The notes beneath the pieces are model-generated. The model saw only the letters and a program-made list of their open reading frames with translations, did no database searches and had not been told where the DNA came from. From Psammoneis japonica (Eukaryota), in assembly GCA_008632985.1 (NCBI GenBank), contig QPGO01000071.1, forward strand, positions 173,516-237,515: a stretch of 64,000 nucleotides of DNA, in the 5' to 3' direction. The position numbers were made by a program, and so were the translations under genes. Every line of letters starts with the position of its first letter. Position 1 is the stretch's first letter. Shown one piece after another: positions 5,883-64,000 of the stretch.

Positions 5883-6879
5883 TGAGAAATAATCAAATCT
5901 GAAATCTCTGAAAACGTACTTCTCAAATATGAAGAATCATGAACCGAGCTTGCTTGACGCCAAAGCACTACAGGTAATGCATTTACTTGCCAACATTAGG
6001 CAAAAAAATTGTTTTCGTGAACTAAAACCTAGTACAACTCATCTTTTATTATGCGATTCAACAAAGATGCTCGATATCTTTCCTTTCATCAACGAGAACT
6101 GATCTAGCAGAAAATGGAAGATAGATCGGGAGCGGCGAACTCAAGAAGTCCAAGTGTAACCCAATGCCCAACTTTTTCTTCGAAATTTCAACGTATTGGC
6201 GAATTTACATTTGCGTGTAAATTTCTTGATCGCGTTTATGAAATACAAAACTATGCTTAGTATACTTTATCCTACTCGACAAAGCATAGTCACTTCCATT
6301 CTTAATCCACGTCCGGATAAGGCAGAACTCTTCTGGTTACTAGAAAGTGCAAGGAACAGGAATGGCTGCTGAAATTGCACCCGTAAAGCCTAGCGAATCT
6401 TCGAAGAGGTCAAAGAATGGATTCGTGCTATTTGGGTAAAATGGCGCGATAGGGATTTCACCAATGGCACCGACCCAGTCACCGGTGCCACCGGTGATTG
6501 CAAGTACCCCGCCATGAACGTCTTCAACCAAGCCTGTAGCAGTGATAGTGCTGCCTGCAGCGTCGCCATACGTAAGCGTGCAATACCCCCCACCTTTTGG
6601 AGCATCTTCTGGTGGATTTGGCATCAAGGTGGCATTATCGGCATCTGGTAGTACCGGTATCAAGGTGGCATTCCTTGTCCTGACACAATGTCCATGCGTA
6701 GTGCCGATCAGCTCGAGCTCGTCAAACTCCTCAAAAATGGTGAGGTTGTAGAGAAAACAGTCCCAAAGGAATGTTGCACCATACATGTCAAGGTCGAGTT
6801 GGTCTCCAAACCTATCCCAGCGGTAATCATAATCTGGCTGGTAGAATCCGAGGTCCAGAAAGTTGTACTTGTTGCAGCT
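5774..6879. repeat. Segmental duplication, copy A (copy B at 19414..20343)
   Basis: Shared CCACTCGAGCTCACTTGTCTGCGC start, shared 3' flank, and near-identical dirigent-domain coding sequence in paralogs 2 and 3. Confidence 0.9.
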
Positions 6880-7227
6880 GCCGGGGCCATGTCCTTCATA
6901 GTATCCTTTGCCGCCTTTGCCGCCTTTGCCACCTTTGCCACCTTTACCTTTGCTCTTCTTTCCACTGTACCCCTTCCCTTTGGCACTCTCATAGCCCTTT
7001 CCTTTGGCATACTCGTACCCCTTGCTTTCGTACCCCTTGCCTTCATACCGCGCATCTTCGTAGTGTCCTAGACGACCAGGAGACAGATCGCGCATCTCGT
7101 CCGCCGTCTCGGTGGTTTCCGCTTCAGGGGCTGCCTTTCTATGAAGAGATCCAATGCCGATGGCTTGAGTGGTCATGGTGGCCAAAGTCATCGCGATGAG
7201 ATGACGAATGGCGATTGAAAACTTCAT
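6340..7227 (-). CDS. Secreted Lys/Gly/Tyr-repeat protein with dirigent/AOC-like domain (paralog 2)
   Basis: MKFSIAIRHLIAMTLATMTTQA signal peptide, RDL site, EGKGY/KGGKGG repeats, then GHCVRT...CTLTY...ITATG...LAITGGTGDWVGAIGEI. Confidence 0.85.
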   Translation of the reverse strand: MKFSIAIRHLIAMTLATMTTQAIGIGSLHRKAAPEAETTETADEMRDLSPGRLGHYEDARYEGKGYESKGYEYAKGKGYESAKGKGYSGKKSKGKGGKGGKGGKGGKGYYEGHGPGSCNKYNFLDLGFYQPDYDYRWDRFGDQLDLDMYGATFLWDCFLYNLTIFEEFDELELIGTTHGHCVRTRNATLIPVLPDADNATLMPNPPEDAPKGGGYCTLTYGDAAGSTITATGLVEDVHGGVLAITGGTGDWVGAIGEIPIAPFYPNSTNPFFDLFEDSLGFTGAISAAIPVPCTF

Positions 7228-10200
7228 TGTGACGGCCTGTGGGACAAGTCTGCATGCACTGTGATGCAAATGATAACTGTGAGTTGAGTGAAGAAGGCAC
7301 GGAAGAGACACTGTCTTTTGCTCGCAATCGACTTACCTTTCGTGAATTGTGAGAGCTGTTGTGGTTGGGAAGCTTTTGCATTTGGAGTGGATTTCTCTTG
7401 CTTGTGACCAAACTTGCTTGGCACGACTTACTGGGCATTTCTGAAATTCCAATTTTGCCATGCGTTGAGTTTGGGATCTACCAGTCGCTACATAGATTCA
7501 AAGCTCAAAGCTTGTCATGTTGAATGTTTCGAGCGCGACCCAATCCAAGACCCAACTCACGCTTTCTTAAAGTAAATTTTGCCTTGACAATGTTGCTTTT
7601 TTATAAATGGCTGTTACAGAAACCAAAGCGTTTCATCGTTATCTGATAAAATCTCATTTCATGCATTGCTTCTGGTGAGTCTCGAGGACAGACATTTTGT
7701 TATTTGACTTAACAAGAACCAAAAATTCAAAATCCAGAAACACGACACATCAACATGATGGGCGCCGCGGCGAGATCGACGTTGAAGGGGCGATCTGGAT
7801 CTGGATCTGGACTCGCAAGCACGCAAGCACCGACGACGATGACAATGGGCAGCTTGTCATGTTGTGACCAGGGCAGCAAGCCATTTTGCTGTGGTTCTTG
7901 GATGAGTTTTGACAGGCTTCAAACTCACACATGACACAGTGTTTCTCATGACTTCCACCTGCCCTTCTTTGCTGTCCCAGGATTGGACACAGAGACGCTG
8001 ATGCAGCAACAAACAGGAGAGAAAAAACAACACCCACTTCTGCAACTGCTGCAGCCACTGAATGCAAACTCTGTTCCATTTTTCTGTCAGCATGCTGTGC
8101 AGATGAGGTGTTGCACCCTTGTTGACACACGGCAAATTCGCACTTTGCGCGAGCTGCTGCAAAAGCACTCCAAATGGGGGGCGTGTTTGGATGTAAGAAT
8201 GTAAAAGAAACTTGCATGGAATTTGCACTAAAACAGTCAGTCAATCTGTGCATTTGGGGTTTTGGTGAATGCTGGATGGGCCAAGTGTGTTTCTCAATGT
8301 GCAAACTGTGCTGGGGGAAGAGCTGGAGGGTGCTGGCATGCCGGGTTCTTTTGGCATTTTCACAGCCAAAGATGCCCCTCAAAGCAGGCAAGTCTGGAAG
8401 ACAAGATGCTGCAATGTCACCCAATGAGAGGAAAAGAACACATCAAAAATGAGCTGGAAGTGCTGGCTGGAGCCTGCGCCATCAAACTGCAGAGCAAAGT
8501 GCCCACTTCAGAGCACACACTCAAAAGGACACCCTGAACTTGCACAAAAGGTTGAAATGTCATGGACAGGAGAAGCTTCACATGAGATCAAGAGCACAGC
8601 TCTAAAAATGGCTCTTGTTCACTTGGCTTCAACCAAAGTTGCAGGAGACATTCGTGCATTTGATGCAGTTGTGAGGACCTCCCCCCAAATGCTGTGTCAT
8701 GTCAAGTGCACAGCACCACAGAGGATCAAAAGCAGTGCCACAGCTGCAATGATTTTCCAGCCTGATCAAGGAGTCTCTGGGACAACCAGGTTTTGGTGAT
8801 TTGTCATGGCACTGAGCAAAAGGCAGTCAAAATGGGCTGTGCAGGAAATGGGCTTCAACAGACTTTCAACAACTTGAGGGTTTTTCTTGCCATTTTTTGT
8901 CTCCATTCAAGGATTTCACCTTTGCTCCCTTGTGTTGGCTTTCCATGTCATTGCCCAGCATCTCAGGTGATCCACCCCCCAAAGTCGCCTCATGTTGTGC
9001 TCCCTCTGCTCTGCAAGAATGTTGTGCAAGACACTCTTTAAATTGACAACAGCACAGCTTGTTGATGTGCACCTGCCCGGATGTTTCAATGAGTGCACCC
9101 ATGGCTTAAAAAAAGTCTTTGTGTCTCCACAACTGCACTGCCTTCTTGGAATCTCTCAGCATCCACCCCACACCCCATGTTGACTTTTGTGATGAGGACG
9201 ATGCCATGACCACACACTGTCAAGCTTGTTTTAACCTGTGCTCATGCAGCAGCAGATGTCACCACAACACTGTCAGGCCCCTGGCATGCCATGTGCCATG
9301 CTTGTGCACTGGACAATGTTGCTGGCACAAAGTCATCAAGATTGTTGCATGCTGCCCATGTGGCAGCTGATGTCACCACCATCAGCCATGTCAGAGTTTT
9401 GCATGCCCTGGCTGAACATCATGCAACGTCATGACTCTCAATGTGTTGTTGTTTGTTCTGCACACCATTGCACCCCACATCAAGCTGTTGTGGCTGCTGC
9501 TGCTCCTTGTCAAGAACTCAACAGAATCCTGCACAATGTCCATTGGCTGCTTGGCAGGCTTTCACAATGCCTCTCCCCACAGCCCCAGCAATCTGTCTGT
9601 CATTGCAAGATGGTTGATGATGCCAAGTCAGTTCTTTCTACAAAATTGGGTGACTCCACCTTTGAACATGATAATGACAATTGCTCCCATTTGTTTTGTT
9701 CTGAAGTGTTGCCATTGTCTGCCATTGGCAGCCCTGTTGACCACCCCAACAGCATGAACTTGCTCCAGAACATGCACCCATTGTCAGCTCCAAAGCATTG
9801 CCATGAGCCATTGTTGACAGCCCCCACAGCATGACACCAACTTCAGAACACACACTCCTGGTTTCCTGGAAGATGACAATTGCCCTGCTTTGGCTCAGAT
9901 TGTTTTGGACTTGTGCACTGCCCAAACCATCTTGTTTCCACCAACAATGACTGATGACTGGGACTCTCATCATTGCAATGAGGCTGAGAAGGCCTTGTCT
10001 CAAACAGTTTTTTCTGTCATTCCATGTGGCAAATCTCCCTCCCACTGAACTCTCAATCAGCAAATCATTGCAAATTTTTCATGAGAGTGCTGCTTGACAG
10101 AAATTGATGCTCAGCTGAGAAACATGGAGCACCATGCCGATTGCCATGAAAAAGCAGAATCGTGGTTGTGCAAAAAGAAAAAGGCACCAAACAACCACCT

Positions 10201-13200
10201 GTTGTTCACAGAGATGGTTGTTGATTGTCACCTGTTGTCTGATGCATCATTTGAGGAGAGACACACTGATGCTTTTTTCAAGCATCACCTGGCAACATTG
10301 GCTCATGGTGACATGCTTGACCACAGCTCCACAACAAATTTTTCCTTCTTCAAACTCAGCTTTTGAAGTGGTGGTTGGCCAACAACAACAAATGTGACTC
10401 TCTCAGGGAACACCAAAACTGGGAAACCATGCTGAATGATGTCATTGCTGAATGTGTTAGCCACAAGGCAAAGCTCTCCATCATCTGACATGATGGAACA
10501 CCTCTCTCCATTGGGAAATTTGTCTGAGGTCAGGTTGGCTGAGTTGCAGAGGAAACCACCTTCCATGAATGCAACAAAACACACAAAATGTGTTGTTCTT
10601 GTTCAAAGCACAGCAAGCCACTCAAGCTGGGAGGATTTGGTGTTGCACTCACTGACCTGCCCCTCATGGTGTGTGGGTTTGAAAGCATGATGGAGATGGA
10701 CTTGAAGCTGATGGATCAAGGCCAGCAGAGTTTGTTCCTGGAAAATGGCAACTCCTCCCTCCTTGGTGGATCAGTTTTTGATCCTGACACATGCAGCAGC
10801 AGCAGCAGCAGCACTTCTGAAGCTGACTGGGCCTCTGCTGCCTCTGCCAACACTGGCTCATCATCTGGAGCCCATGGGAGCTTTTAGACAGTTTCTGAAG
10901 ATGAGGACTCCATCTCCTCTTGCAAGTCTTCTGAGTGGCCAGTTGGCATCAGTGAAGGCAGCAAGTCAGATGACAAACTTGAGGGTGAACTTGTGAAAGA
11001 GCCAAAGAGGAGAGCCTGGCTTGTTGCAGGTGTGCACTTTGGGGGTGCACAAGTCTGAGTTGACCAGTGATTGCATCCAGCTGCTTTTGACAAAAACATT
11101 TGGTGACAGCGGCAAACCCAACATGATCAACATGAAAGTTGGCATGGATGGATGCTGTGCTGGGATGGATCAACACACCATCAAGGCAGCACTGGAGAAT
11201 GGAGGTGATGCAACAATGACATGCCAGCGGGTGCACAACTTTGCTTTTCCCTTTGGGCAGAAGCTCAGAGGATTCAATGACAAAAGAAAGGCAATGTCCA
11301 CAGAGGGCCTCCACTGCTTGGTGAAGAAAGCAGTGAAGACGCAGCAACTGCAGGCAGAGGCATTTTTTAAAGAAACTGTTGCTCAGCTTTGCTCCTGTTG
11401 AAATGGCCAAGGTGGTGGCATGCTGCTGCAATCAAAGCTGTGCCAAGAAAACTCAAGACATTGGATCCACTGCCTTCCAAGATGGGGTGCAAAATGTTGT
11501 GATCAACACATCCTTTGCACATCCCTTGGACAGTGAAGCCAAGAAGAACATGGCAGTGGGTCAAGCCATGGACAAGAAGCTTGCTGAGGACACAATGAAA
11601 CATGCAAATGACCCCAATGCTGTTGCTGTCTTGCCCATTTGCTCCATGTTTGAAGTGGGGCTGATGAGAAATGTGGAAGTGCCGTGGTTTCAAGACAGCT
11701 CGGACAACAATGGCATGACAGTCATGGATGGAAATCTGGGTGTCTGGAGAGTTTCTGTCTCACAAGCTGAAGACAAGAACCAGTGGAGGCACACAGCCAG
11801 AGGAATGGGAAGTTCTTCAGCAGGTGCAGGAGGGTGGGTAGAAATGTGTCTTGGTGGACACCATGGGTGACAATCTCTGTGGACATGTCACCACCAAGGC
11901 AAGCAATGCTCTCCAAAATTTGCATCATGTCACATGCCAGAACTTCCAATGCATCCTTTGCATCAATGGATCTGAACAGGGCAAGGTCATGTGGGGTGCC
12001 TGGGTGCAATTCTCTGAAGAGCTGCAAGGCACACATTCTGCAAGAAAAGAAACAGATTGAGCAAGTGATCAATTGTGGTGCATGCAACAGCCACACATGC
12101 ACAGACTGTGAAACATTTTCAAATGCCCCCTGCCTGCTGAAAAGAACTCCAAAAATCTGTGCTGTCTCTCTTGTTGAAGCTGTCTCAAAAACAGATCTGA
12201 TGCACTTGCCCAGTGCCCGCCTCATGAGTGATTTCAGGTTCAAAATTCCTGTTGGCTGTGAAAGCCCCTGAGCTGCTGCAGTCCAGCACCTTCTTGCACA
12301 CCTTGTCCAACTGCAAGCACCGCACATCCACACGATGTTCCCAGCTCACCAAATTGAAGATTGCAGAGCCATCAACAACTTCCAAAACAGTGCTGACCAG
12401 CAGATCTGCTCTCTCAAGTCATTGCCTGCATCTCCAATGGGAACATTTTGTGCCAACAAGAAAGCTTTGACAGATGACCAAAGCAAGAAACACTGCAGCT
12501 CTGGCTGGTGGTGGCACCAGCCAGCACCAAAGCCAATCATGGTGAGGAAAGGGAAGCATTCAGAAGACAAAGGCATCAATGCTGTTCTTTCTGATTGTGG
12601 GGTTCTTGTTGGCAAGGAGGAGGCCTCAGTGGAGGTGGGTCATGCACTCAAACATGGCACAGTTGCAAACGCTGCACCCAAAGAATGCTTGGAAAGGAGG
12701 GTGGCTTGTTGCAGTGATGTCAACAACTGCCTGTCAATGTGCAACAATCCCTTCCTCACTGTGAGAATGAATGTCCATCCAAATCTTTATGGAGAATTGG
12801 AAAAAGCACAACAACAGTGTGTCACAGGGGGAGAAAAACACTCAACTGTTGCATGGGATGTCACAGCATGCACTTTTGCAATGACTCACCAAAAGCCAAG
12901 ATGGTTAGACCAGGACTGCTGTGGACTCCATTGCATGCCCTTTGAAGCTGCAACAAATGTGCAAGGCCAAGCTGCACACAGATTGTTGGGGTAAAACTCA
13001 GGTGTCAATGCAGGAAGAAAAGGGGCTCTGAGAACAAGAACAAGTTTTGACAGTGTGAAAGGTGAAAGCAATGCATGTGTGAATGTGCTGGACACATGCT
13101 TTGTGCAAGCCCACAAAGCACACCTTCATGAAGGTGACAGCTGGAGACAGTCACAATCAGTTGGTGCATCCACAGATCCACACTGCACAACAAAAGTCTG

Positions 13201-15450
13201 CACTGCCCGCTTGCACAATGCCCACGCACTTGTTGTGCCATGTGAACCTTGCAACACTCTTTCATTGAACATCACTTTTCACAGAGTCAATTGTCAAATC
13301 CATTTTCTGTGAAAGAATCTTCCAATTTTCTAGACTGAAACAGCATGCCAGCATTCTTGATGAGTTGCTGGAACCATCAACCAGCTTGTTCACTTGTCAC
13401 TTGCCCCCTGTTTCATGCAGCATGAAATGGACATCTCAACAACATTGGAGTGCAACATGATGAACACCTTCCTTGGACCATGTTCCATGCCACCTGCAAA
13501 TGATGTCAAGTTGCACCATGCAGAATTTGACAGAATGGCAAGAGCTTTGCAGCACGTGCAATGTCAAAACGGCAACAACACAGGTGGCCAGTCTTCATCT
13601 CATTGCAGAAGTCACACAGCACTTGCCATTGTGGAACCAACACACACGCATGACATGAGCTTGTAGAGATCACCTTGTGACTGACTCATCTCATGTGAGG
13701 ACTCTGATGACATGCAGCAAACAATGCAAATGAAGAGTGCAGCTTGTGGCAAAACAAAAAATTGTGAGTTTTTCCTTGCTGCACATTTCTGTGCACAAGC
13801 AGGGACAAAACAAAGACACAGATGCAGCAGCAAGAATACAAAAAATGCACTCAGCTGTCATGTGGCCTGGATTGCAAGAAAAATTGTCAACTGTGAACAA
13901 AGTTGAAAACAAAACACATGTGCTGCCAACAATTCAAACCAATCCACAAGATTGTCTGTTGTGATGATGGCCGTGCCAGATGTGTGACAAAAATGAGTGC
14001 AAATTTTGATGCTCTTGTTCACAACATTCTTCACATCAACAGCCAGAGTCAATCATTGCACCAAACCATCGCACCCATGACATTGTTCATCACAAATGTC
14101 AACAATTTGTGGCTGCTGTTGAGATTTCTTTTTGTCAAAATGACAGGGAGAACTTGCAGACATGGGAGGTTGTCCCACACACACCTGGCATCATCTGCTG
14201 CTTGCTTTGTCACTCTGCTTCTTTGGTGCCACATGGGTTGTCAGTGTGCTTCCATCCAAAATCAAATCATTTGCATCCACGGTGTTTTTGACTCCATTCC
14301 TGTTGGTGGTGAAGCACTTGAGACTTTTGATCAAGCTGCAACAAAAGTGTTTGTGAAAGCCTTCTGCAGCTGTTGCAACTTTTGGCTGCACATGACAAGA
14401 GTGGAGATGTGCTTTGGCAAAACAAGAGAGAAGTTGTTGGTGGATTTGTTGCCCTTGTTTCTCAAGATGGGTGGCTCAATTTTCCAGAACAAACCCATCA
14501 ATGTGACCTTTTGTGGTTTGCTGAGGCTGTGAACAAGCCTTCTTAAATGCAAGCAAGCACTGTCATCTTTGTTGGTGATGCGGTGCCTCAACATCTCAGC
14601 TCCATGCATGTTCTCAACCAAAAAACAAGGAAGGCACTCATTGAGATGGCAGCTGTGGGCTGGAAACAGATGTCTGGAGCAACTCCAAGAACAGCTGTGT
14701 CTGACAAGCCTGTGGACGCACTTCAATCCAACCAATCAACTTGGGAAAAGGCAAAATCATCTGATGAAAGCAGGTCATTCACAGAATGGGGGATCAATTT
14801 CTTCATGGATTTGCCACTGCTTTTGTGCTCCACTGCTCATTTTTTTCTCAGGCATGCCTTTTTTTGCAATCAATGGCAACCTGAGATGCAAACATTCATT
14901 GACAGAAAGCCTTGGGTGTGCACCGCAAATGGTCCAAGGCTGACAATGGTCATTTTGGGCACAACTCAAAGTTGCAGCAGCCCAGTCAAAGTGAGAGCAG
15001 TGAGTTGAAACCACGGAAGCTGGATGTTTGCAAGGAAAGCAACAGTGCAGCTGCCTGGGACAGTTGCCAGCAAATTCATTTTGTCAGCTGATCTTTGCTC
15101 ACAGCCACAAAGGATGTTTCCTTGTGACAATTTGTGTGTGTTGTTTGGTTGCAACAGAGCTGCAGCCTGCCTGGGGAAGTCAGGGTGGAAGCAGGAAAGT
15201 CATGTGCACTCCTCAATGACACATGATGGTTCAACAGTGAGCCAATCTTGAGTTTTCCAAGTCAGGGAAAAATCTGACTTTGCATTTGTGATGTCGTGCA
15301 GGAGGGAACATTTCAATTTGACAGGATCATTGTGATGTCACCAAAAGAACCTGAGAAAATCTGATCTGACAGCAGCACACCTGTGTGTGCAAGCATTGCA
15401 TCATGAACATCTTCTGCAACAATTTGACAGCAGCTGCCATTGTGGCATCA

Positions 15451-15689
15451 GCAAGAAACAGGAGGAAATCTGGCGGCATGTGGTGTGTGCAAGCATTGTG
15501 GCACATGGTCCCAAGAGCCCCAATGTGTGCTCAGGAAAATCATCTGACTTGCATTGGGGATGTCATCCTGCAAGAAACATGAGGAAATCCAACAGCACAC
15601 AGTGTGTGCAAGTGCTGCATTGCATGATCCTGAGAACCCCAATGTGTGCACAGGAATGTTGTCTGACTTTGCATTGGTGATGTCATCCC
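15451..15689 (+). repeat. Degenerate tandem repeat, ~119-bp unit x2 (partial related copies from ~15268)
   Basis: GCAAGAAACA.GAGGAAATC...GTGTGTGCAAG...CCCCAATGTGTGC.CAGGAA...TCTGACTT(T)GCATTGG.GATGTCATCC at 15451 and 15570. Confidence 0.8.
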
Positions 15690-17524
15690 AGGACTTGCGG
15701 GCTGCCTCCAGGTTGTGCCCCACAACAAATTTCCAAAGCCATGCAGAGTTGTCATCTCAATTGTTCAAAATTGTGCTCATCAAAATGCCATGTTTCTGAA
15801 TGAGATCACATTTCAAAAATGATGGCAACAACTCAGTGCATCAATGAATTAAGAATGTGCAGGAGGCCAATCATCACAGTTGTGAAATCAGGGGAAAAAC
15901 AGGGTTGGATTGAGCTGCGTGCCACACAAATGGACTTTGACAGCCAGCAGATCAGCGGCATTGGTGCAACTCCCACAAGGAGAAACAAGATGAGACTTTC
16001 AATGGCAGCAGATGCTCTCCAAGATGCCATGAGCACCAATGGTTGAAATGCCACTGTTGGCTGCAACCAGACAGAATCTCTGGATAACAAGTGACAAAAC
16101 AAAGACCACAGCTGCATGTCATTGTTTGACCATGACAACATCCAAAGTGCTGCTGCATCAGATGCTTGCACAACTCATCTTGTGAAGAAGCACACTGGAG
16201 CCACCAACTCCACCAAGGATGTGAGCAACATTTTCAGGGCTGCTGTCAAGAAGAAACACTGTGATTTTGTAAAGAACATGAAGAAGGGTGCCATTGACAG
16301 CAAGGAATCAATGCTGTTGGCAATCTGTTGCTTTGGCATGAGAAACAACAAGAGCAAATTCAGGGTCACTGACATCACCAAGTGTGTTGGCAAGAGGCCA
16401 GTCTGGGAGGGTTGGAGTGCTGCACTCTGCGTTGCCCATGGCAGCTGGGACACTCACTCCAATTCATTGTTGAGTGTTGAGGAAGCCCCATGGAAGAAAT
16501 GAGAGTGCAAGCACTCCAATGGATTTTGTTGCACCACACAGGAAGAAGTGTGGTTGTGGAACAAGGGTCATCACATCAGAGAAAACACACACAAAATCAG
16601 GGAGCTGAACAATTCTCTGAAGATGTGCTGCAATGTTGCTGCCTGCACATCAAGAACAGTGCAGAATGGAGAGGAGTGACCTCAAGAGAAGGACATCAGC
16701 TGTGCACCATTTCCAGGAAATGGTGCCAAGGGCAGACAAGTGTGTTTCAGAAGTGCAGAGAAAGCACAAGGCAAACTGCCCCATTCTCTCAAGCAGCCAC
16801 TCACCATTGCAAAAATGGTGGCATCAACTTTGGAAGGTTTGAGACAGTCATTTTCAGCACAGATGCCACAAGAATGAAATGGATGATGATGCCTTTGACT
16901 TTAGCAACAACAAGGGGACAGTGAACAAAGGCAGGCATGGGGAGTGGTGCACAAAACAGACAGCAAACAAGAGCTGTCCACAGCCATCTTTTCTCATTCT
17001 AAACAAAGGGGCTTGTCAGACCAAATGAGAACAAGCCACCAAGGAACAAAGTGCATTCATCAGGCAGCTGTGGTGAGCTTGAAGGTTCCTCCAGCATCAA
17101 TGACAGCACCTGTCCATCCAGCATCAGGCAAAGCAAGAAACCAAATCTGACAAAAAGGAAGGAGAGTGGCGCCAGTGACAAGACAAGCAGAAAAAAGGGC
17201 ACCCAACTAGAGCATGGGTGCAAACCCAGGTGCACTCATGTCTGCTGCCACCAACATGAATCAAGCAGCCACACATCTGCCAACAATGAACCAGGCCCAA
17301 ACCTCTCTGCCACTGATGAACAAGAGGAGCTGCCAGAGGATTGGCAAATCATCAAGAAACTGATCAGATGCAAGAAATGTTAAAACAGGTGTCTTGTTTT
17401 TTGGACACACAAGAGAAAACATGGAAACCTGAAGTTGGCCCAATGAGCAGTTGGTGGAGGAGCATCAGAAAAAGGCAGAAGGAGAAGAGGCAGAGAGCAT
17501 TGCCAACCAATGAAGGAAAAGTGT

Positions 17525-17645
17525 GTGTGCTGCATGTGCAGGGAACTCTTGCACAACAGAGTGCCTTGCATCAAATGTGGAGTCAAAAACCACAGGAGCT
17601 GCTCCTTTCAGCAGGCCAGTGGCAAGCACTGGTGCTTTGGTTGTT
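17525..17645 (+). pseudogene. PHD-finger-like relic within the mutated block
   Basis: ORF 17510..17761: CCMC-x9-CIKC-x4-HRSC-x9-WCFGC, the C4HC3 spacing with the conserved Trp. Confidence 0.5.
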
Positions 17646-19413
17646 GCAGATGTGAGGATGAGCAAAGCAGAAAAAGCAATGTGGAGTGCAAGGAGCAAAA
17701 TCACACCAAGCAGTCAGCACTTTTTAAGCTGTGTGACATGCCATGGGAGCTTTTCAATTGAAGGTGCAAAAATGGAAAATCAAGTGGACATGAATGACCA
17801 CAGAGCAGGACATTTGTGCGATGCAAAAAACCAAAAGATGCTGCAGAGCAGCATGCTGCATTTCTTGTGGTGACAATGTGTTGCAGGCAGAGGGGTGTTC
17901 CTAAAAGGAATGAAAAATGGAGCCCTGCTGAGATCATTTGAGTGGCAGCCATTTGTTTGTTTGTGGATGCAACAGCAGGATGTGTGGCATCACAGGTGGT
18001 GCTGTCAGCTGAAGAGAGAGAGAGCAGAGTCATGACAGTGGAACAAAGCTGATGGTGCAGAGTTTGAGTGCAGCAGAACAATGGTGTTGTCGGATGCAGC
18101 AGAGCAAAATGGTGAGGCATGGATGCAGTCATTGCATGATGGCTCCACATGTCAAATTGCACAATGTAGATTGGACAATGGCACAAGGAAACAGCACAAA
18201 TGCCAACTCCAAATTGCAGATGTGATGTGTGCATGATGTGGACAAATGCGCAGTCAAATTTCTTCTGACAGTGTGCCAATGATGTCACTCAATCACATCA
18301 AAGGAATTTGACTTTAGCAAGATGATGTCAGATGACAATGTCAAGCAGTCAGCCAAGACAAAAGTCTGATGTTGTTTGGTGATGTCACAGAGAAAACCAA
18401 GTCAGGTGTCTTGCCTTGACACAGGAACACCTGACATGAGACAAGATTGACAGGGGGCCCTCAAACTGGTGAGACACAACCCTTCTGGCAGTGGATGTGG
18501 TGGTGGAGGGATGCAAAACAACACAACCAGAGATGGACAGTGAAGAGGGTCCCTCATGACAGGCTCCATCCTGGGGAAACACATTCTCTGTTTGCAACAT
18601 CAATGGCAACAAGATGGGGGTGTCACTGTCAATCATTGTGCAGGAGTTTGCTGGGTGCACTGAAGGCAAACAACAACTGGTGGTGACCCATTCTGGTGGA
18701 CAAGGCCTGCCATTCATGATGCTTGGACTTGAGTGTTGAGATGCAGAGGAGGGCAAAAACTGCTTGGTTGTGCACAAAAAGTGCAAACCAGACATCAAGG
18801 GGTTTGAGCAAAATCTGCACCACACCTTGCTGGTGCTGCCCATGCAGAAAGTCACTGCCAAACTAGCTTTGGACCCAGGGTTTTAAGCTGGCATCAAGTG
18901 TGGCATTTTGGACCCCAACAACAATTCATGAAACCTGCAACAACTGAGTTTCTGGGAAGTGAGCAAGAGATTGGGTGCAATGATTAGAAGAGCTTCTCTT
19001 GCAGGTGCAAGAAACAATGAGCAAAGGAAAAAGGTTGTTGTTGCAGGAAGGCTAACTTGGTTTGCAACATCAAATCTCGGCAAGCCTCCATGCAAGGAAA
19101 TGCCTGTCCCAATGGAGATTACCAAGAAGACCTGGCTTGAACAACACTCCTGTGCATCTGAGGAGGGTTAAGGCCGGTGGTGTTGTTGGAGAGGGGGATC
19201 TCGAAGAACACCACGAAAGCATAGTTTTCAAAATCATGTGTGTGGGATATAATGAAGAGAAGCACCTAAGATATATACTCAGCATGCTGTGGATCAAGAT
19301 AGACTGTCTGCTGTGAGTGACAAGTTTTTCGGGACCCGTAGAACACGTTTGCAAAATCCAGTGACAAGGCAAACGTGTCATAGTTGGTAACTACGGTAAA
19401 AAATGCTATGAAA

Positions 19414-20343
19414 CCACTCGAGCTCACTTGTCTGCGCAGCAGGCATTTCGGTTAACGTGGATACATTCTTCTTTTCGTTTGACACAGTGTAGCGGGAAAC
19501 AATCAAATCTGAAATCACTGGAAAGGTAATTCTCACATCTGAAGAACCACGAACCGAGTTTGCTTGATGCCAAAGCACTACAGGTACACTACTTGTGCAT
19601 TTACTTGCATCGGGAGTTTCAAAAACAAGAAGCTCAAAGTAACCCAATGCCCAAATTTCTCGTCAAAGGCTTACGGTATTTGCGAATATCCTCTGCGAAT
19701 TCTACATCTGCGCGTGTTAAATATTCTGATCACGATTCTGAAATACAAAGCTATGCTTACTACACTACTTTATGCCACTCAACAACGCATATTCACTTCC
19801 AATCTAAATCCCCGTCCGGTTAAGGCAAAACTGTTCTGCTTAAAAAGTGCAAGGAACAGGAACGGCCGCTGCAATTGCGCCCGTAAAGCCTAGCGAATCT
19901 TCGAAGAGGTCAAAGAATGGATTCGTGCTATTTGGGTAAAATGGCGCGATAGGGATTTCACCAATGGCACCGACCCAGTCACCGGTGCCACCGGTGATTG
20001 CAAGTACCCCGCCATGAAAGTCTTCAACCAAGCCTGTAGCAGTGATAGTGCTACCTGCATCATTGCCAAACGTAAACGTGCAATATCCACCACCTTTTGG
20101 AGCATCTTCTGGTGGATTTGGTATCAAGGTGGCATTCCTCGTTCTGACACACGATCCATGCGTAGTGCCGATCAGCTCCAGCTCGTCAAACTCCTCAAAA
20201 ACGGTGAGGTTGTAGAGAAAACAGTCCCAAAGGAATGTCGCGCCATACGAGTCAAGCTCGAGTTGGTCTCCAAACCTATCCCAGCGGTAATCATAATCTG
20301 GAATGTAGAATCCAAGGTCCAGAAAGTTGTACTTGTTGCAGCT
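19414..20343. repeat. Segmental duplication, copy B (includes an orphan 3' fragment of the 4387..5882 gene)
   Basis: Aligns by eye to 5774..6879. Confidence 0.9.
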
Positions 20344-21021
20344 CCCATACTTTCCTCCATATTTTCCCTTTCCTGGACCAGGACTTGGACCAGGGCCGGG
20401 ACTAGGACCAGGACCATATCCTTCGTATTCTTCGTAGTATCCTTTGCCTTTTCCATATCCTCCCTTTCCAGGACCTGGACTTGGACCAGGGCCATATCCT
20501 TCGTATCCGTATTCTTCGTAGTATCCTTTGCCTCCGATGTATCCCTTGCCTTTATTATATCCTTTGCCTTCGATGTATCCCTTGCCTTCATAATAACCGC
20601 CTTCGGAAGAACTTCTCTTGCCACCCTTGCCTCCACCTCGTTTGCCACCTCTGCCTTTTCCTTCTCCACCTTCTCCTCCTCCCTTGCCACCTCTGCCTTT
20701 TCCTTCTCCGCCTTCTCCTCCTTTTCCTCCGTATCCCTTGCCTCCATAACCCTTTCCTTCGTAACCTTTGCCTTCATATCCTTTTCCTTCATATCCCTTG
20801 CCTTCGTACCCTTTCGCTGGTCCAGGAGACACTCTAGGTCCGGGGCTGCGTCTAGGTCCAGCGCTGTAGCGCTTCGGAAGACGACGGTTCTCTGCATCGG
20901 CGCCCACGAGAATTTCCTCAGTGGGAACAGTAGCTTGGAGAGAGTCTTGTTCGGCGGCAAACGAAGTCGCGATGGCCAAGGCCATTGCGCTGACGCACAT
21001 AATCCTGGTAATGATCTTCAT
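19840..21021 (-). CDS. Secreted Lys/Gly/Tyr(/Pro)-repeat protein with dirigent/AOC-like domain (paralog 3)
   Basis: 393-aa ORF: signal peptide, ENRRL site, (EGKGY)n, GG-rich and GPGPSP repeats. C-terminal domain nearly identical to paralog 2. Confidence 0.9.
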   Translation of the reverse strand: MKIITRIMCVSAMALAIATSFAAEQDSLQATVPTEEILVGADAENRRLPKRYSAGPRRSPGPRVSPGPAKGYEGKGYEGKGYEGKGYEGKGYGGKGYGGKGGEGGEGKGRGGKGGGEGGEGKGRGGKRGGGKGGKRSSSEGGYYEGKGYIEGKGYNKGKGYIGGKGYYEEYGYEGYGPGPSPGPGKGGYGKGKGYYEEYEGYGPGPSPGPGPSPGPGKGKYGGKYGSCNKYNFLDLGFYIPDYDYRWDRFGDQLELDSYGATFLWDCFLYNLTVFEEFDELELIGTTHGSCVRTRNATLIPNPPEDAPKGGGYCTFTFGNDAGSTITATGLVEDFHGGVLAITGGTGDWVGAIGEIPIAPFYPNSTNPFFDLFEDSLGFTGAIAAAVPVPCTF

Positions 21022-56900: not shown

Positions 56901-58250
56901 TCGGAAGATACCTGGACTCAAGTCATTCGAGAATTCAGAAGTGAAAAAGCTCGAAGACAAAATTCACGACCGCCGTCTGGTTCAGGCAGTTGTTGCTCGT
57001 CAAGGACCGCTTGTTGGTAAAACTGTCAGAGACGTCCGGTTTCGTACACGATATGGTGCAGCTGTAATTGCTGTACACCGTGAGGGAAGTCGCGTTCATG
57101 ACCATCCAGGAAAAGTCAAATTGCAGGCAGGTGACGTCCTTTTGCTTGAAGCAGGTCCTACCTTTGTCCAGAGAAGCAAAGAGAATGACAAATCCTTTGC
57201 CCTGCTGTCGGAAGTAGAAGACTCCACTCCACCTCGTCTCCGTTTGTTAGTGCCCGCTCTCGTCATTGCTCTTGCAATGCTTATTACTTTTACCGCTGGC
57301 GGTGCACCCCTACTTATTTGCGGTCTTATCGCAGCTATTCTCATGGTCATTCTGGGTATTCTCACACAGCAGGAGGCTCGGGATGCTGTGAATTGGGAAA
57401 TTTACTTGACAATTGCTTCCGCTTTTGGAATTGGTACGGCGCTTACCAACTCTGGAGTAGCCGGAGGTAAGTGCCTTTCGCAGCATTTATCAATATTGTA
57501 AGCCTTTTGCGGATTCTTCTCACCCAGCCTTTGTTTCAAATCAACATCTCAGGTATTGCGGACTTTCTCGTTGACATTGGCAATGCCATTGGGATGGGAG
57601 GTACGGTACAATAGCGTGCATAATGTCTGGGCGACGGTGGCGTCGAAACATTTTCTCACATCGTCCTTTCAACTTTTTTGACGTCAGGGGCTGGCTTGTT
57701 TGGCGCGGTCTACTTTGCTACCTTTCTTATCAGTAACGTCGTCACTAATAATGCAGCGGCTGCACTTGTATTCCCTATTGCTATGGATGCCGCCGAGCAA
57801 TCTGGAATAGACAGATTGCTCATGAGTTATTGTCTTATGCTTGGTGCGTCGGCAAGTTTCATGTCTCCATATGGCTACACAACAAACTTGCTTATTTATG
57901 GACCTGGTGGTTACAAGGCAAGTGTCAATCCTGAATAGACTCCGCTTTTCGGCGAGCTGGCTGAAGGCTATGTTCTTGTAACTGTTGTCTCACATGCATT
58001 CTGCAACGTGTTTGGACCTGCTCAGTACAAAGACTTCCTGATCTTTGGAACTCCAATGCAGATTGTCTTGTGGATTATCTCTGTTGCAATCCTTTCCATT
58101 CAGTCTTTCCCGTGGTATGCATCGTGGATTGTTACATTTTTAGCTCTCTTCTTTATTGCTGCTCGTCGAGTCACGGAAGGAGCAATCGCCAATTTAGTAT
58201 TCAAACGATGGAGGAAGGATAAAGAAGTTGCTGATGAGGAGCACAAATGA
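53999..58250 (+). CDS. SLC13/CitMHS-family (sodium:sulfate SLT-like) transporter with TrkA-C domains and an ACT-like insert, multi-exon
   Basis: GFANEGLLTV, SAFLNNTPVV, IPLSFASILGGTCTLIGTSTNLVV, TrkA-C repeats (FRTRYGAAVIAVHR), SNVVTNNAAAAL, SPYGYTTNL...GPGGY. GT-AG introns, e.g. 54293-54371. Confidence 0.92.
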
Positions 58251-58309
58251 TTTGATTTTCCGCAGGTCGTATCGTTTGTGATGTTGGTTCCATCCCGCCT
58301 TCATGCGGT

Positions 58310-58543
58310 TACAACGATTTGGTACGGGAGACGGGACCAGCTCCTCAGTCACGTATTGATTCATCTTAAATTTCAAACCTATAGATACTGTATATATATT
58401 CGTATGTGCGACGATCGATGGTCGAGCATAAGATGCAAAGTAACACACAAATCGAGGTAGACAGAGGCGGCTTGGCAACATAATGACGTCTACCATGTTG
58501 GTTTCACTCTTGTGTTGTCTGATTGTCAGAAACTTGGACGCTT
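58310..58543. repeat. Direct repeat copy 1 (copy 2 at 63457..63805): 3' end and 3' flank of a duplicated minus-strand gene
   Basis: TACAACGATTTGG...GGACCAGCTCCTCAGTCACG.ATTGATTCATCTTAAATT and AGAGGCGGCTTGGCAACATAATGACGTCTACCATGTTGGTTTCACTCTTGTGTTGTCTGATT are shared. The minus strand encodes SVQVSDNQTTQE* in both copies. Confidence 0.85.
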
Positions 58544-59050
58544 CTCCAGGAATAATTGATCTCTTGGACAGATGACTGGTCATCCGTGTTTTCCTGGTTT
58601 GAAGCCACATCCTGTGGCACTTGTCAACCTGTTGGAGCTCTGTTCTTGTGCCAGGCTTGAGGTGACATTGCCATGGGAACCTTTGTCAACACCCTGATGC
58701 AGGTGGTGCATGGTCCCTGGACCAATCTGCAGCTGTTGGCTTGGGGACTTCAAGGTTGGAAGCTTGGGGTTGCCCCCGCTCCTGCTCTGTGGGATGTTGC
58801 TTGGAAGAAGGATGCAGCTCAATCACCCATGGTCTTGAAGCAAACTGCAACAACTTAGAAAGACTGTGTTGGTGCCTTGGAAACACACTGCATCTGCTGC
58901 ATACTGCATGCACATGACATTGACTGCAGCCAGAGGCGTGCTGACCATGGTTGGGGGGGCGGCAACTCTGCAGCATTGTCCGCACCACAACTCAACCAAC
59001 TTTGTAGATGCTGATTGAAGTCAATGTCCTTGAAGACTTGGCAACTGCAG

Positions 59051-61240
59051 CTGTGGGTGGGGACGCCGTAGAAATCACGTGGGTGCCATTTTTTTAGTGA
59101 AATCAACCTCTGTGCCCAAATGGACCATGGCGGTCGTCGACGTCGTGACAAAAAAAAAGTGTCATCATCGCGACTCACAAGACTCAACGTGCGGTCACAA
59201 CGCGCAAGGCCGGGCTTCCAACTCCCGCCACAATGTTTGCCAAGCGACCACCAAGTCAACCTGCCGTTTCTCACCAAATCGCTTTTGCACCCTCAGAATC
59301 ACTGTTTCAGACAGCACCTTCGAAGCATTGCATCCGCCATCATCTTGTCAGGTGGAATGCTGCGAGGGGCTGTCTCGAACAACGATTTGGTTGAGACATT
59401 AAAAACAATGTCGACACTTGACCAACAAACATGCCGTTTCGCACCACACATCGCTTTCGCACCCTCAGGATCAACACAAAAAGATGCACATTTGATGCCA
59501 TCGTGTCCGCCGTCATCGAATTAGGCGAGGGGCTCCGAAGCACAATTTTTGGCGGCAGTTTCATCGAGCAATTTTGAAATGTCTGCGAATGACCTCACAT
59601 CTTGTCTGAACATCATGCCGTCATCCAAATGGCACCTTCACGAGAAACAGTTTTGTTGCATGCTGGAAACAAAGACCACAGAGACTCAATCTATCAGCAA
59701 ACAACTTGCCATCATGATGAAAGCTCTGAGAAAAGGATTTTTGGGCTCTTAGACTCTGAGACATTGAGAGCAATCGGTTCTGAGTTCACAACAAGCAACA
59801 AGTGTTCCAGCACTGCATTTTCGGCCATGTCAACAGGAAGAGCGCCACTGAGAGGCACATTGTGGAGAGCAATGGGTGGTTGGACATGGTTGGAGAAACA
59901 CGGTGCTGCAGCAGCAGTCATGGCATTTGATGAACAAGGACAAGCAGCAACCGAGGAGGACAAGGTTTGGACATGCAAGCGTGCAACATTCACGAAGTGG
60001 GCACAGACATTGTGTGTGATCCCAATGTGTTGACAATTGGCACCGGCATGGAGGAATGCACCAACTGTAAGTCAACTTTGTTGACGCAACAAAGACCATC
60101 AAGGAACGGTGTCCGTGCGCAAAGGTCATCGGCGGCAGTTCGAACCTTTCGTTTGGATTCCGAGGAGCAACGAAAATCCTCGAATCAATTCATGCCGTGT
60201 TCTTGAATCATGCAATCCTTGAGTCTGGAATGGATTTTGGTGTCATGAATGCGAAGGAAGTGCTTGCTGTCTTGATGAATTGGACGATGACACGAGGGTG
60301 CCATGCAAGAATCTTGCACTCAACAAGACAGAGGATGAGACAGACGAGATGCTAAAGCAAACAGCGCACAGAAGAGCACGCATTGATGCCAGAAAGAAGG
60401 GCTTGCCTCTGCCTTGGAAGCCCCATGGCAAACCTGCAAACAAGCCATGCCTTGCATTCTCTCATGACAAAGTCATCTCCAAACCTGCCATCGAACCGCC
60501 TCTGCTGATGCCAACGTCAGAAGCTGCAAAGAATCATGTCCTGAACAGACAAGCAGAAAGAACAAAATGGCAGAGCTCATTGTGCTTTGAAATGAGAACT
60601 TGGTTCCACCGCGAAATGGGCGTGCATTGGCACTCGGCGGATTTTTACACGGTGAAGTGTGGCAAAAGAGAGAAAGATGCCATTGATCGTTCTCTGCAAC
60701 TGGAGAGACAGCTGAAGTGGCAGATGCATTGTCGGAGACGTGATTGATTCCACATTTGATGTCGGTCACTTTTGGTGTCACAATGGCTGCAATGTCATTC
60801 CAAAACTGCAAACGAGACATCAAGGATTTTCAGTTGTGATTGCACGGTGAAGTGCGGCAAAAGCAACAAAAGCACCATTTCACGTTCTTTCCAACTGCGG
60901 AGTCAGGTGACTTGGTGGACATGTTGTTAGAGACGTGAGAGCCTCTGCTTTTGACACTGGCCAGCATTTGCATGACAAAAGTTGCAGTGTCATTCCAAAA
61001 CTACAAACGAGTGATGGTGGGATTTTCGAAAAATCAAAACATTTTCAGTCATGATTGCATGGCAAAGCACGGGAAAATGGCGGTCACTTCATCGATCTCG
61101 TCAACGACGAACACAATGCAAATGAAAAAGTTGCCCCCCATTTTAAGACCACTGCAACACCCTCCATGGACTGGGGCAGCTCTCGTTTTGATCCAAGAAA
61201 ATTCATCTCTACATGATTTCTACGGCATCCCCTCCCACAG
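59051..61240. mobile_element. 2.19-kb DNA transposon with 30-bp terminal inverted repeats and 3-bp (CAG) flanking duplication, probably non-autonomous or decayed
   Basis: Left end CTGTGGGTGGGGACGCCGTAGAAATCACGT (59051-59080) vs right end ACATGATTTCTACGGCATCCCCTCCCACAG (61211-61240), 27/30 inverted match. CAG on both sides. Confidence 0.8.
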
Positions 61241-61346
61241 CAGCATGCTCAAATGCAAAGGCTGTCAACACCTTGCAGGCCACGGGCATGTGCCTTCTTG
61301 TTCTGTGAAAGCCATGAAGAGTTTTTTGTGCCCTCTTTTTTGGCAA

Positions 61347-61765
61347 TGGGGATTTGTTCTTGAATGTGCCGATTGCCAATGATCAGCTTTGAAGCTCAAA
61401 TGCTGGTCAATGGCAGTTCTTCTGGCAAGGGTGACTCAATGCAAACCAACTTGGAGATGAGTCATTGCAACCTTGCAGAAGCTGGCACCGCAGGCTCTCA
61501 TTTGGAATGACGTTGGGCTCTGGAGCAAATCTCTTGAGCTGGGTCACTTCAATCAACAGTGAAGAGTTTTGTGGCTGCTTTCTCTTTGACAACAGGGGTT
61601 TGTTCTTGAGTGCACCGATTGCCAATGATCAGTTTTGAAATTCCAGTCAATGGCAGCTCCAGCAAGGGCAACTCAGTGCAAGCCAACTTGGAGATGGCTT
61701 GTTGCAACCTTGCAGAAGCTGACACCACAAGTTCTCATTTGGAGTGACGTTGGGCTCTGGAACAA
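61347..61765 (+). repeat. ~175-bp degenerate direct repeat (61347-61529 and 61595-61765)
   Basis: TTTGTTCTTGA...CCGATTGCCAATGATCAG...CCAACTTGGAGATG...TTGCAACCTTGCAGAAGCTG...TGACGTTGGGCTCTGGA shared. Confidence 0.85.
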
Positions 61766-62059
61766 AGATCTCATGGTCAACTTGTGACTGTGTTGATCCA
61801 TTGGATGCATGACAGCAGGGATGCCATGGCCAGCAAATCTGCGGTGCCCAACAGATGGTCTGCAGAAAAGTGAGTTAAAATGCAGGGTGCATTGTGCTGT
61901 GTGTGCTCTCAACCAGAGAGGGGCAAATGTCTCAATCTGTGATGCTGGTCATGACACGTGTCATGTCTGAGCCATGATCAGCCAATGCCCTCCAGATCTT
62001 TGTTTGTTGTTGCACTTTGACCCACCATGAGATCATGGACGGGTCATCTGACATCACCA

Positions 62060-63400
62060 CGCTCCACAGACACAGCTGTGTGACAACAACAACAGCTTAG
62101 AAGCATGTGCCATGCTGCTCTGCAGAGTGTCAGAACAAATTTCTCATGCAGAAAAAGTTCTTGAAGTGACCATTCATTGCTGGTGTTTCATGTCTCATTC
62201 TAACTTGCATGTTCCCACAGCTGTTGTTGATCAGTGCTTGCCATCATGCCTGGGCACTTGACATGCACTGGAGCCTTGCCCATGCAGCCATCATCTGCTT
62301 CAATGCATTCCCCTTCCTCCAGTTGATGGAGCAATCTGTCTTGGAGAAAGATCATCACATTCTCTGCAGAGAAATGGCCCTGAAATCCAAACAATGTTGG
62401 AAGTGCAAATGGCAGCTGCAGCTTCATGCCAGAGACCAGAATGCTTGAACATGAGCACAGAAGCATCCATCTTGTTCTCCAATCAGAAGCAACCTGTTTT
62501 TCACAACAAAGTCAGTGCCATCATCCACAGACACAAGGCAATCATTGCCGGTGTCATCTGTCTTGCAACTCTCCCAAATGATCTCATTTGAAGATGAGTT
62601 CAACAGAAAAGATTGGGTGAGAGCTTGCCAGCTCTTGTTGTCAAGCAAGAAACAACAAGCAGACAAACAAACATCACTGCCCTTCAGACAGGAGATCTCC
62701 TTGAAGATCCAGCAGATCCAAGATCTGTGGGTTGCCTCATCCACACCTTCAACACAGGAAGCAAGAAACAACAAGCAGACAAACAAACATCACCACCCCC
62801 TCCAGACAGGAGATCTCCTTGAAGAGCCAGCAGACCCAAGATCTGTGAGTTGCCTCATCCACACCTCCAACACAGGAAGCGCCCAAAAAAGCTCAGTGTT
62901 TCAGGCCCAGAGCCTCAGCTTCTGCCAACTGGCAATGATGACAGGCACCTTCTTCAAACTCTTCTTTTTGCAATGTGTTTTGAATGCAACATTTCAAATG
63001 TGACAGCAATGTCTGTCAGGGTGATGCAAACAAGCCAAGCCCTCCTGGCTTGAACTTTCAGCACAAACTTGCCCTCCAAAGAAGAAAGATGATCACCGGA
63101 AGGCGCAAGCACCAGCTCTCTTGCAGCATTTTCTGCTGTGAAGCAGCTGCAACTCTCACTTCCACACTGTTGCAACCAGGATGTGGACAAGTCTCCCATT
63201 CTGGAAAGACCAAATCTGGGGCAGTTGGGCTGGCATGCTGCCAGACCAGCCACAGAAGCAACTTCTTGGTGCAATCCAGAAATCAGCTTGCAACACAGGC
63301 TGTTTTTGATGTTTTGCGGGGATGCACCAAAACAATGACAGAGACAATGGGCACCCTGGCAGAGCATTGTGTGTTGTCGAGGAAAAACTCGTCCATGTCG
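62060..63400 (-). pseudogene. PIF/Harbinger-like (DDE_Tnp_4-type) transposase relic, with a 116-bp internal tandem duplication (62645-62760 / 62761-62878)
   Basis: Fragments across frames: FGASP, GVDEATHRSW, GNDCLVSVD(D)GTDF, FKHSGLWHE...IVWISGPF, GECIEADDGC, RHET..N.HFKNF...F*H...HGTCF*AVVVVTQL. Family assigned from recalled motif pattern. Confidence 0.75.
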
Positions 63401-63765
63401 AGGTGGCAATCTGCAGAGAAAAGGCCATCGGCGGAGAGAACTGGTGTTACTCACTGTACAACGATTTGGCACTGAGCACAGGACCAGCTCCTCAGTCACG
63501 GATTGATTCATCTTAAATTCGGAATCTTCATAGATGTATAAATGCGTATGTACAGATATTTGTGAATGAAAATTTGCTGCCAACACAAAAATCTGAAATA
63601 GGCTTCCTTAATCTTCTATTTTAAAAAATCATGCTCCACGCGTCATCGTCCATCGTCGCATCGTCCATCGTCCCCACACCCGATCGTCAAGATGACACGC
63701 AAAGTAACACAAATAGATGTAGATAGAGGCGGCTTGGCAACATAATGACGTCTACCATGTTGGTT

Positions 63766-64000
63766 TCACTCTTGTGTTGTCTGATTATCAGAAACTTGAA
63801 CGCTTTTGTGCTTCCTCTTCCTCGCTGTCCTGTGGCAAAATCAAACGATTTGTTGTTCCCTCGCTTTGCAGTTTCATCCTCACGAGGGGCGATTGATTGG
63901 CTAAAGAAGGAACCTGTGGAGTCCTTACTGCCCAAGGAGGATGCACTCGAGATTATTTCAGAACTCCTTTCCAACGATGAACTCATAAACGACAGCGAAG
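63766..64000 (-). CDS. 3' end of an unidentified gene continuing beyond the window (paralog of the decayed copy ending at 58504)
   Basis: Normal base composition. The two nucleotide differences between copies in the SVQVSDNQTTQE* frame are synonymous (GTC/GTT, GAC/GAT). Confidence 0.4.

Follow-up and report, generated by a model that had tools for sequence, protein, structure and literature searches.

Mobile DNA of one diatom is probably hit by two separate, context-specific transition processes, of which the stripping of TpA dinucleotides is faster than the decay of CpG dinucleotides. This is the best explanation for the composition of a 64,000-nucleotide stretch of the diatom Psammoneis japonica (GenBank assembly GCA_008632985.1, contig QPGO01000071.1, positions 173,516 to 237,515 of the forward strand), hereafter the window, whose own numbering is used below, and in particular of an element at 59051-61240. 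This element appears to be a non-autonomous transposon with terminal inverted repeats (TIRs), which carries a captured fragment of a host methionine synthase gene. The first process would convert TpA to TpG or CpA (A:T>G:C) on both strands, would be confined to transposons and other inserted DNA, halting sharply at their borders, and would depend on the flanking bases, R-TA-Y (R, purine; Y, pyrimidine) being most sensitive and Y-TA-R protected. The second would be the ordinary decay of CpG to TpG or CpA that is expected from deamination of 5-methylcytosine (5mC). Both would end in TpG and CpA, the first about 4-7 times faster per site, and because of this greater speed young or still-amplifying families, such as the TIR element and a copia retrotransposon, would be stripped of TpA with most of their CpG kept, and old insertions would be left without both. 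Most of the element's TpA loss would have come to it from its family, and it would continue to lose TpA and, more slowly, CpG at its present locus. Observed, as described below, were the direction and context of the changes, where they are localised and their relative rate. The first process is presumably enzymatic (adenine deamination or thymine modification) and would serve genome defence, and the second presumably reflects methylation.

Composition and structure of the element

The element (2190 bp) contains 95 CG (observed/expected ratio, o/e, 0.75) and 14 TA (o/e 0.10). In the genic background (20000-58000 minus an N run, 37.8 kb) the ratios are 0.98 for CG and 0.58 for TA, and the background minima over 356 windows of 2190 bp are 0.80 and 0.43, respectively, so the element lies far outside the background in TA and slightly low in CG. 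Furthermore, the minimum TA count in 2000 mononucleotide shuffles of the element was 114, against the 14 observed. Within the element, the 300 bp at 59101-59400 hold 21 CG (o/e 1.05) and no TA, which agrees with an original prediction, made from the letters of the window, that this part is CpG-rich and almost TA-free. The same prediction held that the flanks lack both dinucleotides, and so they do: the left flank (58555-59050, 496 bp) has 5 CG (o/e 0.15) and 3 TA (o/e 0.11), and the right flank (61240-63400, 2161 bp) has 18 CG (o/e 0.14) and 3 TA (o/e 0.02), the two together giving o/e 0.14-0.17 for CpG and 0.02-0.12 for TpA. Between element and flanks the CG density differs 5-fold (Fisher p = 3e-15) while the TA density differs merely 2.5-fold (p = 0.05).

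These flanks belong to an older, single-copy block (block 2), from which CpG and TpA are nearly gone and whose left and right parts, at 58546-59047 and 61244-63456 (the latter with 18 CG and 3 TA), enclose the element. A second and larger doubly depleted block (block 1, 7711-19170) was delimited by composition and is without a recognised protein domain; its core (8000-19000) has 45 CG and 34 TA, that is, o/e 0.07 for CpG and 0.04 for TpA, with 238 TG+CA per kb. At its left edge, 7747-7845 (99 bp) contains 12 CG and no TA as had been predicted, but this short example is marginal alone, about 3.9 TA being expected in 99 bp. The predicted combination of many CpG and few TpA is also found in a copia-type retrotransposon fragment at 1-1500 (1500 bp, forward strand), which has a reverse transcriptase (RT) domain at 1-663 (RVT_2, E = 1e-21), 99 CG (o/e 0.89) and 18 TA (o/e 0.23).

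The depletion has sharp borders, at about 1411-1571 (copia), 7711, 19170, 58546 and 63456, and low CpG with normal TpA was found in none of the 1-kb windows within the window. As CG and TA drop, TG+CA climbs from 144 per kb in the background to 197-238 per kb, and the sum of the four pyrimidine-purine (YpR) steps CG, TA, TG and CA is nearly constant: against 239.6 per kb in the background, copia has 239.3, the element 246.6, block 1 245.0 and the flanks 235.7-242.2. The remaining 12 dinucleotides deviate far less than these four. The GC content of the depleted DNA (0.47-0.51) is unchanged from that of the background (0.48) because the TpA and CpG processes cancel. In addition, the old blocks have the CpG deficit (o/e 0.07-0.17) with TpG/CpA excess that is seen in 5mC-driven decay.

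The structure of the element is that of a transposon. The left TIR (59051-59080, forward strand) and the right TIR (61211-61240, reverse strand) were found by inverted-repeat search and core matching; the arms measure 30-35 nt (59046-59080 and 61211-61245) with 89% complementarity, and a 19-mer core occurs at both element ends and nowhere else in the window, two matches being reached in 0 of 100 shuffles. The triplet CAG, read from the letters on either side (59048-59050 and 61241-61243), forms a 3-bp target-site duplication. Contigs of a public sequencing run were placed on 58000-64000, their depth was summed and their variants were scored against the window. The summed depth is 750-2000 within the element and 56-65 in the flanks, and the contigs part ways near 59046, the left end of the element; the element is therefore a member of a family of roughly 13-35 copies, according to its 13-35-fold excess over single-copy depth, lying in single-copy DNA. 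No RNA data set was listed as carrying the element. Pfam search of the element found no transposase domain, the methionine synthase fragment being the sole domain recognised. Thus TIRs, target duplication, multiple copies and lack of a transposase are all found together, and on these grounds 59051-61240 is most probably a non-autonomous TIR transposon that has captured a fragment of a host gene. On the forward strand it also contains two subterminal direct repeats of about 170 bp (59240-59600) and three direct repeats of about 195-215 bp (60631-61240). Both TIRs retain a TpA, at positions 59069 and 61221, in CCGTAGAAATC, although the element has just 14 TpA, and this TpA may be needed for transposition.

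Direction, rate and context of the changes

The captured gene gives the direction of the changes. The fragment (59884-60546, forward strand) is frameshifted and spans the end of the pterin-binding domain of methionine synthase (MetH) and the linker after it. Its Pfam match to Pterin_bind is below threshold (E = 0.009), and it was then confirmed by MetH searches: four MetH relatives were retrieved, and tblastn pieces spread over three frames with E down to 1e-46. It has 2 TA (o/e 0.05) and 26 CG (o/e 0.64). Among 141 codons conserved in the aligned relatives, 33 differ in the element, and all five inferred T>C changes precede A (Val GTA>GCA three times, Ile ATA>ACA and Tyr TAT>CAT), as two of the three inferred A>G changes follow T; the other classes are CpG-type (6.5), other transitions (4), transversions (9.5) and multi-step changes (6). 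A captured MetH fragment with this composition implies that the family acquired its TpA deficit by mutation, and the TpA poverty of the element is accordingly conversion rather than native composition.

Comparison with the sister copies points the same way. It covers the best 40 of 595 variant rows, which include 38 sites in the element where at least 76% of the contig depth differs from the window. At 10 of the 38 the element has TG or CA where the other copies have TA, at 13 it has TG or CA where they have CG, and a single site is in the reverse sense (CG here, CA elsewhere); the other 14 are 7 transitions and 7 transversions. Moreover, repeat pairs inside the depleted DNA differ by CA|TG in 24 of 37 adjacent double-transition differences, as is expected when one ancestral dinucleotide resolves in two ways, and the internal repeats of the element do so at 12 places. 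The direct TA/TG pair that the original prediction had noted in the internal repeat is present (60808 CTGCA, 61003 CTACA), and there is a second pair of this type at 60647/60842.

Similar changes are seen in the copia fragment, where six tyrosine columns common to three distant relatives read H, H, C, F, L and Y in the window, with the codons CAC, CAT and TGC, and the catalytic YVDD motif is altered to HVDD. The three relatives come from a metagenome search with the copia RT, which gave three distant loci (33-36% identity) used as composition control only. Their TA o/e of 0.73-0.85 indicates that TpA poverty is not a copia trait. In a tblastx search of these loci and the window copia against the old blocks, one chance-level match was obtained. 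One of the relatives (L003, 1563 bp, from another organism) has a CpG o/e of 0.28 with a TpA o/e of 0.73; elsewhere, then, CpG can decay while TpA is kept, a pattern which is absent from the window.

The changes are strand-symmetric: when block 1 is divided into 500-bp bins, the TG and CA counts have a variance of z of 0.92, not above binomial, and strand-coordinated editing clusters were found neither in block 1 nor in the element at the 500-bp scale. In the right flank within block 2, the four 500-bp bins are over-dispersed in TG/CA (p = 0.01). As for the single-copy flanks, the window and the public-run contigs have only two differences, one of which, at position 58902, is a residual TpA (CATAC, of the R-TA-Y class) against CpA; this single site may be a live polymorphism of the TpA process.

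The relative speed of the two losses was estimated from a family sequence, that is, the element with the 38 sites reverted to the majority state, which has 109 CpG (o/e 0.85) and 23 TpA (o/e 0.16). Private losses of the element are 10 of 23 TpA and 13 of 109 CpG, a per-site ratio of about 4.5 (Fisher p = 0.001), and TpA loss is thus the faster one, as had been predicted. The element has 7 transitions at its roughly 1926 ordinary sites, against 13 changes at its 218 CpG bases (about 16 times the ordinary-site rate, derived by hand), and TpA bases change about 60-80 times faster than ordinary sites. Composition relative to the background gives higher ratios of TpA to CpG loss, the element reaching about 6.6 and copia about 10 (by hand from o/e).

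The further claim that TpA loss precedes CpG loss stands only as far as speed is concerned. The 13 private CpG losses and the 16-fold CpG excess mean that both losses run concurrently, and the distinction is one of rate, not a sequence of events. Nor does nesting order serve as a timer, as had been proposed, because the deficit is already present in the family sequence (o/e 0.16); most of the TpA deficit of the element was apparently inherited from its family before insertion at this locus. On the other hand, TpA loss is a change from A:T to G:C, beyond the reach of cytosine deamination, so it is a separate process and, as had been held, no by-product of 5mC deamination. The two losses are consequently decoupled in chemistry, but they are coupled in location and share their sharp boundaries.

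The flanking bases strongly affect TpA loss. The 41 TA that remain in the old blocks comprise 26 YTAR, 13 mixed and 2 RTAY sites, as against background shares of 15%, 53% and 32%, respectively (chi-square about 76, by hand). In the element, again among the best 40 of 595 rows, the TA lost relative to the sister copies are 4 of 4 RTAY, 6 of 13 mixed and 0 of 7 YTAR sites (permutation p = 0.0009). R-TA-Y is the most sensitive context and Y-TA-R is protected. The 41 residual sites include TTAG (8), GTAG (4) and CTAG (3). Over 13.7 kb the old blocks retain 69 CG and 41 TA, a residue which fits an equilibrium of mutation and reversion with the TpA part dominated by the protected flank class. As to CpG, residual sites in 8000-19000, 58501-59045 and 61246-63400 are R-CG-Y in 22 of 68 cases and Y-CG-R in 10 of 68 (background 22% and 24%), a marginal effect (chi-square about 6, by hand), and Y-TG-Y gains exceed R-TG-R gains; CpG decay may, marginally, prefer Y-C-G.

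Alternative explanations and other features of the window

It is very unlikely that the family was TA-poor by origin, its composition being inherited and TpA untouched in this genome. The original prediction had itself named a natively TA-poor family consensus as an observation that would tell against it, and the majority-adjusted family is literally TA-poor, with only 23 TA and a deficit that mostly predates insertion. The captured MetH fragment nevertheless indicates that this poverty was acquired, since it comes from a host housekeeping gene and reads GCA, ACA and CAT at conserved Val, Ile and Tyr codons. In addition, sister copies keep 10 TA that the window copy has lost, internal repeats have resolved into CA|TG differences, the YpR totals are conserved, the unrelated copia and two unrelated blocks share the TpA loss, and the distant copia relatives have normal TA. 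Selection against TA in the RNA of expressed transposons is hardly credible, and so is an artefact of assembly or sequencing. UpA avoidance is common in expressed RNA, and the background TA o/e is already as low as 0.58, but the depleted sequences are frameshifted pseudogenes with changes that destroy function (YVDD to HVDD), their TA o/e of 0.02-0.10 is far under the genic minimum, and the public-run contigs reproduce the flanks with 0-1 differences.

A single machinery that attacks all self-complementary YpR steps (CpG and TpA) in silenced DNA with unequal efficiency, so that the losses are mechanistically coupled, would account for the identical sharp borders and end products of both depletions and for both being under way in the young copy; it is unlikely, given that the chemistry is opposite (A:T>G:C and G:C>A:T), that copia has lost TpA and hardly CpG (o/e 0.23 and 0.89), and that the flank effect is strong for TA and marginal for CG. 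It is also at odds with hypermutation in the chlorarachniophyte Bigelowiella natans, which is described below and in which 230 of 231 mutations are at TpA, CpG being unmentioned in the accessible part of the text. Targeting instead of rate might be responsible, if the TIR family and copia escaped CpG methylation yet were edited at TpA and the old blocks were methylated for unrelated reasons. The CpG o/e of the young elements (0.75-0.89) is indeed near background, but the roughly 16-fold excess of change at CpG bases (13/218, against 7/~1926) indicates methylation-type decay on the element, and we regard this explanation as quite improbable. Two separate processes of unequal speed remain the preferred explanation.

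Several points weigh against it. The window is one, with four independent elements, of which two have TpA-only losses and two have double losses, and a mobile or foreign origin of the old blocks, which are without recognisable protein domains, is assumed. The sister-copy comparison is limited to the best 40 of 595 variant rows, the public-run contigs and the window possibly share one sample of origin, the majority state is perhaps not ancestral where parallel mutation is common, and the ancestral MetH residues were inferred from relatives of unspecified species and not from the host's own gene. The similar residues of the old blocks (69 CG and 41 TA) suggest a smaller ratio, about 1.7, if the residue is not dominated by the slow YTAR class. 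Finally, the lines of evidence conflict on orientation at mixed RTAR/YTAY sites: all six private changes there, among the best 40 of 595 rows, are R-T-A>R-T-G, the compositional gains of the element are near even (RTGR +15.5 per kb, YTGY +17.2 per kb), and several MetH-inferred changes have the opposite orientation to R-T-A>R-T-G.

Several other features of the window are worth describing. In 7711-19170 and 58546-63456, TAA and TAG stops are nearly gone, which leaves homologue-free open reading frames (ORFs) of up to 240 aa that could be wrongly called as genes. Pfam search of the TpA-depleted regions, with 142 ORFs of 70 aa or more, gave the copia RT, Pterin_bind (E = 0.009) and a few chance-level weak matches, and read-through translations with stops as X, covering 61244-63456 and 7750-11651 (block 1 being scanned to 11651), gave no protein domain. 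Both doubly depleted blocks sit between direct repeats of normal composition: block 2 is bounded exactly by repeats at 58317-58545 and 63457-63808 (79-90% identity) and block 1 lies between paralogous 1.1-kb segments at 5651-6882 and 19297-20346 (76-83% identity). These repeats could reflect the mode of insertion or duplication of the blocks. The segment 63427-63627 has a summed contig depth of 521 with normal TpA and is either a repeat without TpA depletion or owes its depth to the (CATCGTC)n microsatellite at 63644-63673. Genes are dense in the window and have long exons. No host lineage came out of a protein atlas, but one did from homology searches: for two of the genes, every named protein among the best 120 matches is from a diatom (45-66% identity), none being near-identical. 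At three places in the window, 2915-3627, 6900-7050 and 20370-20815, there are genes containing short tandem repeats (9-45 nt) rich in Gly/Lys/Tyr, and Pfam assigned no family to those of their ORFs that were searched.

Relation to known systems and significance

In the literature searched, TpA hypermutation of foreign DNA is reported once, in B. natans, which carries integrated giant-virus and virophage DNA, and no paper on TpA loss in diatom transposons was found. According to the accessible part of that report, two integrated viral regions of B. natans gathered 231 mutations in mutation-accumulation lines, of which all but one, namely 230, were A>G or T>C changes lying at TpA; they arose at about 6e-7 per site per generation, in some lines only, transposon domains (RT, DDE) were enriched among TpA-poor coding sequences, and an ADAT2-like adenine DNA deaminase was suggested (Mettrop et al., 10.64898/2026.01.13.699255). 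As far as that text is available, the change is restricted to TpA, goes to TpG or CpA on either strand and hits inserted or foreign DNA while the rest of the genome is spared, with TpA scarce and CpA+TpG abundant in the long term, and the same is found here: the 10 private TA>TG/CA changes stand against 1 in the reverse sense, and the four elements have TA o/e of 0.02-0.23 against a genic minimum of 0.43. In context and localisation the diatom pattern therefore seems to behave mechanistically like B. natans hypermutation. The two differ in several respects. B. natans is a rhizarian and the present host a stramenopile; the targets there are integrated viruses and here transposons, including a multi-copy DNA transposon and copia; the depletion is deeper here (o/e 0.02-0.10, against 0.45 given for the B. 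natans region of nucleocytoplasmic large DNA virus origin); and the mutations of B. natans were caught de novo, whereas the present signature was read from sequence comparison alone. Deep CpG loss accompanies TpA loss here, while in the accessible B. natans text CpG has no occurrences and a flank rule beyond TpA is not given (10.64898/2026.01.13.699255). The diatom host, the comparison with CpG and the rule that RTAY is sensitive and YTAR protected are thus new.

Repeat-induced point mutation (RIP) of fungi is likewise a dinucleotide-specific transition hypermutation which degrades repeated and mobile DNA in place and leaves sharp-bordered, unrecognisable blocks. RIP changes C to T, chiefly in CpA, and so makes new TpA and reduces GC, whereas in the window TpA disappears, GC stays as it was and single-copy blocks are hit. 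RIP was rejected as a candidate, because C>T at CpA, an excess of TpA and AT-richness were not found; TpA is lost and TG/CA doubled. A-to-I hyperediting of the ADAR type and deaminases of the ADAT/TadA type resemble the present changes in making A>G with a preference for 5' U/T. ADAR prefers a 3' G, whereas TAG is among the sites retained here, and the change here is strand-symmetric and occurs in a DNA transposon. ADAR-like RNA hyperediting of retroelements was also rejected, TG and CA being symmetric at 500 bp, a DNA transposon being hit and TAG being retained. Deamination of 5mC in methylated transposons accounts for one half of the pattern, the change of CpG to TpG/CpA in repeats, but it is unable to yield A:T>G:C and is about 4.5 times slower per site here. 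Methylation in diatoms is chiefly CpG and over repeats, according to the part of the source available (PMC5124317). The enzymology of the first process could be adenine deamination, thymine modification or another reaction. As for the element, its TIRs, 3-bp duplication, subterminal repeats, captured fragment and many copies without transposase recall Pack-MULE-like non-autonomous TIR transposons; 3-bp target duplications are found in PIF/Harbinger or CACTA elements, and the autonomous partner of the element was not seen.

The captured gene fragment, the sister copies and the nested insertion together make an internal clock, and they gave the first estimate of the rate of TpA loss relative to 5mC decay. 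The flank rule is a testable requirement which any candidate enzyme must reproduce. In addition, hypermutated transposons escape homology searches while their GC content stays normal, and the lost TAA and TAG stops give rise to long false ORFs. The occurrence of the signature in a diatom besides B. natans suggests that the process is widespread among major marine phototrophs. More tentatively, and with rather more doubt than confidence, diatoms may possess an enzyme-based system that edits A:T>G:C specifically at TpA, prefers R-TA-Y, and would mark and disable new transposons before, and independently of, the decay of methylated CpG. Together with that of B. natans it would point to an ancient defence common to stramenopile-alveolate-rhizarian (SAR) lineages; it would be a mirror image of fungal RIP and the source of much of the unannotatable, TG/CA-rich "dark" DNA and of the spurious long ORFs of such genomes.

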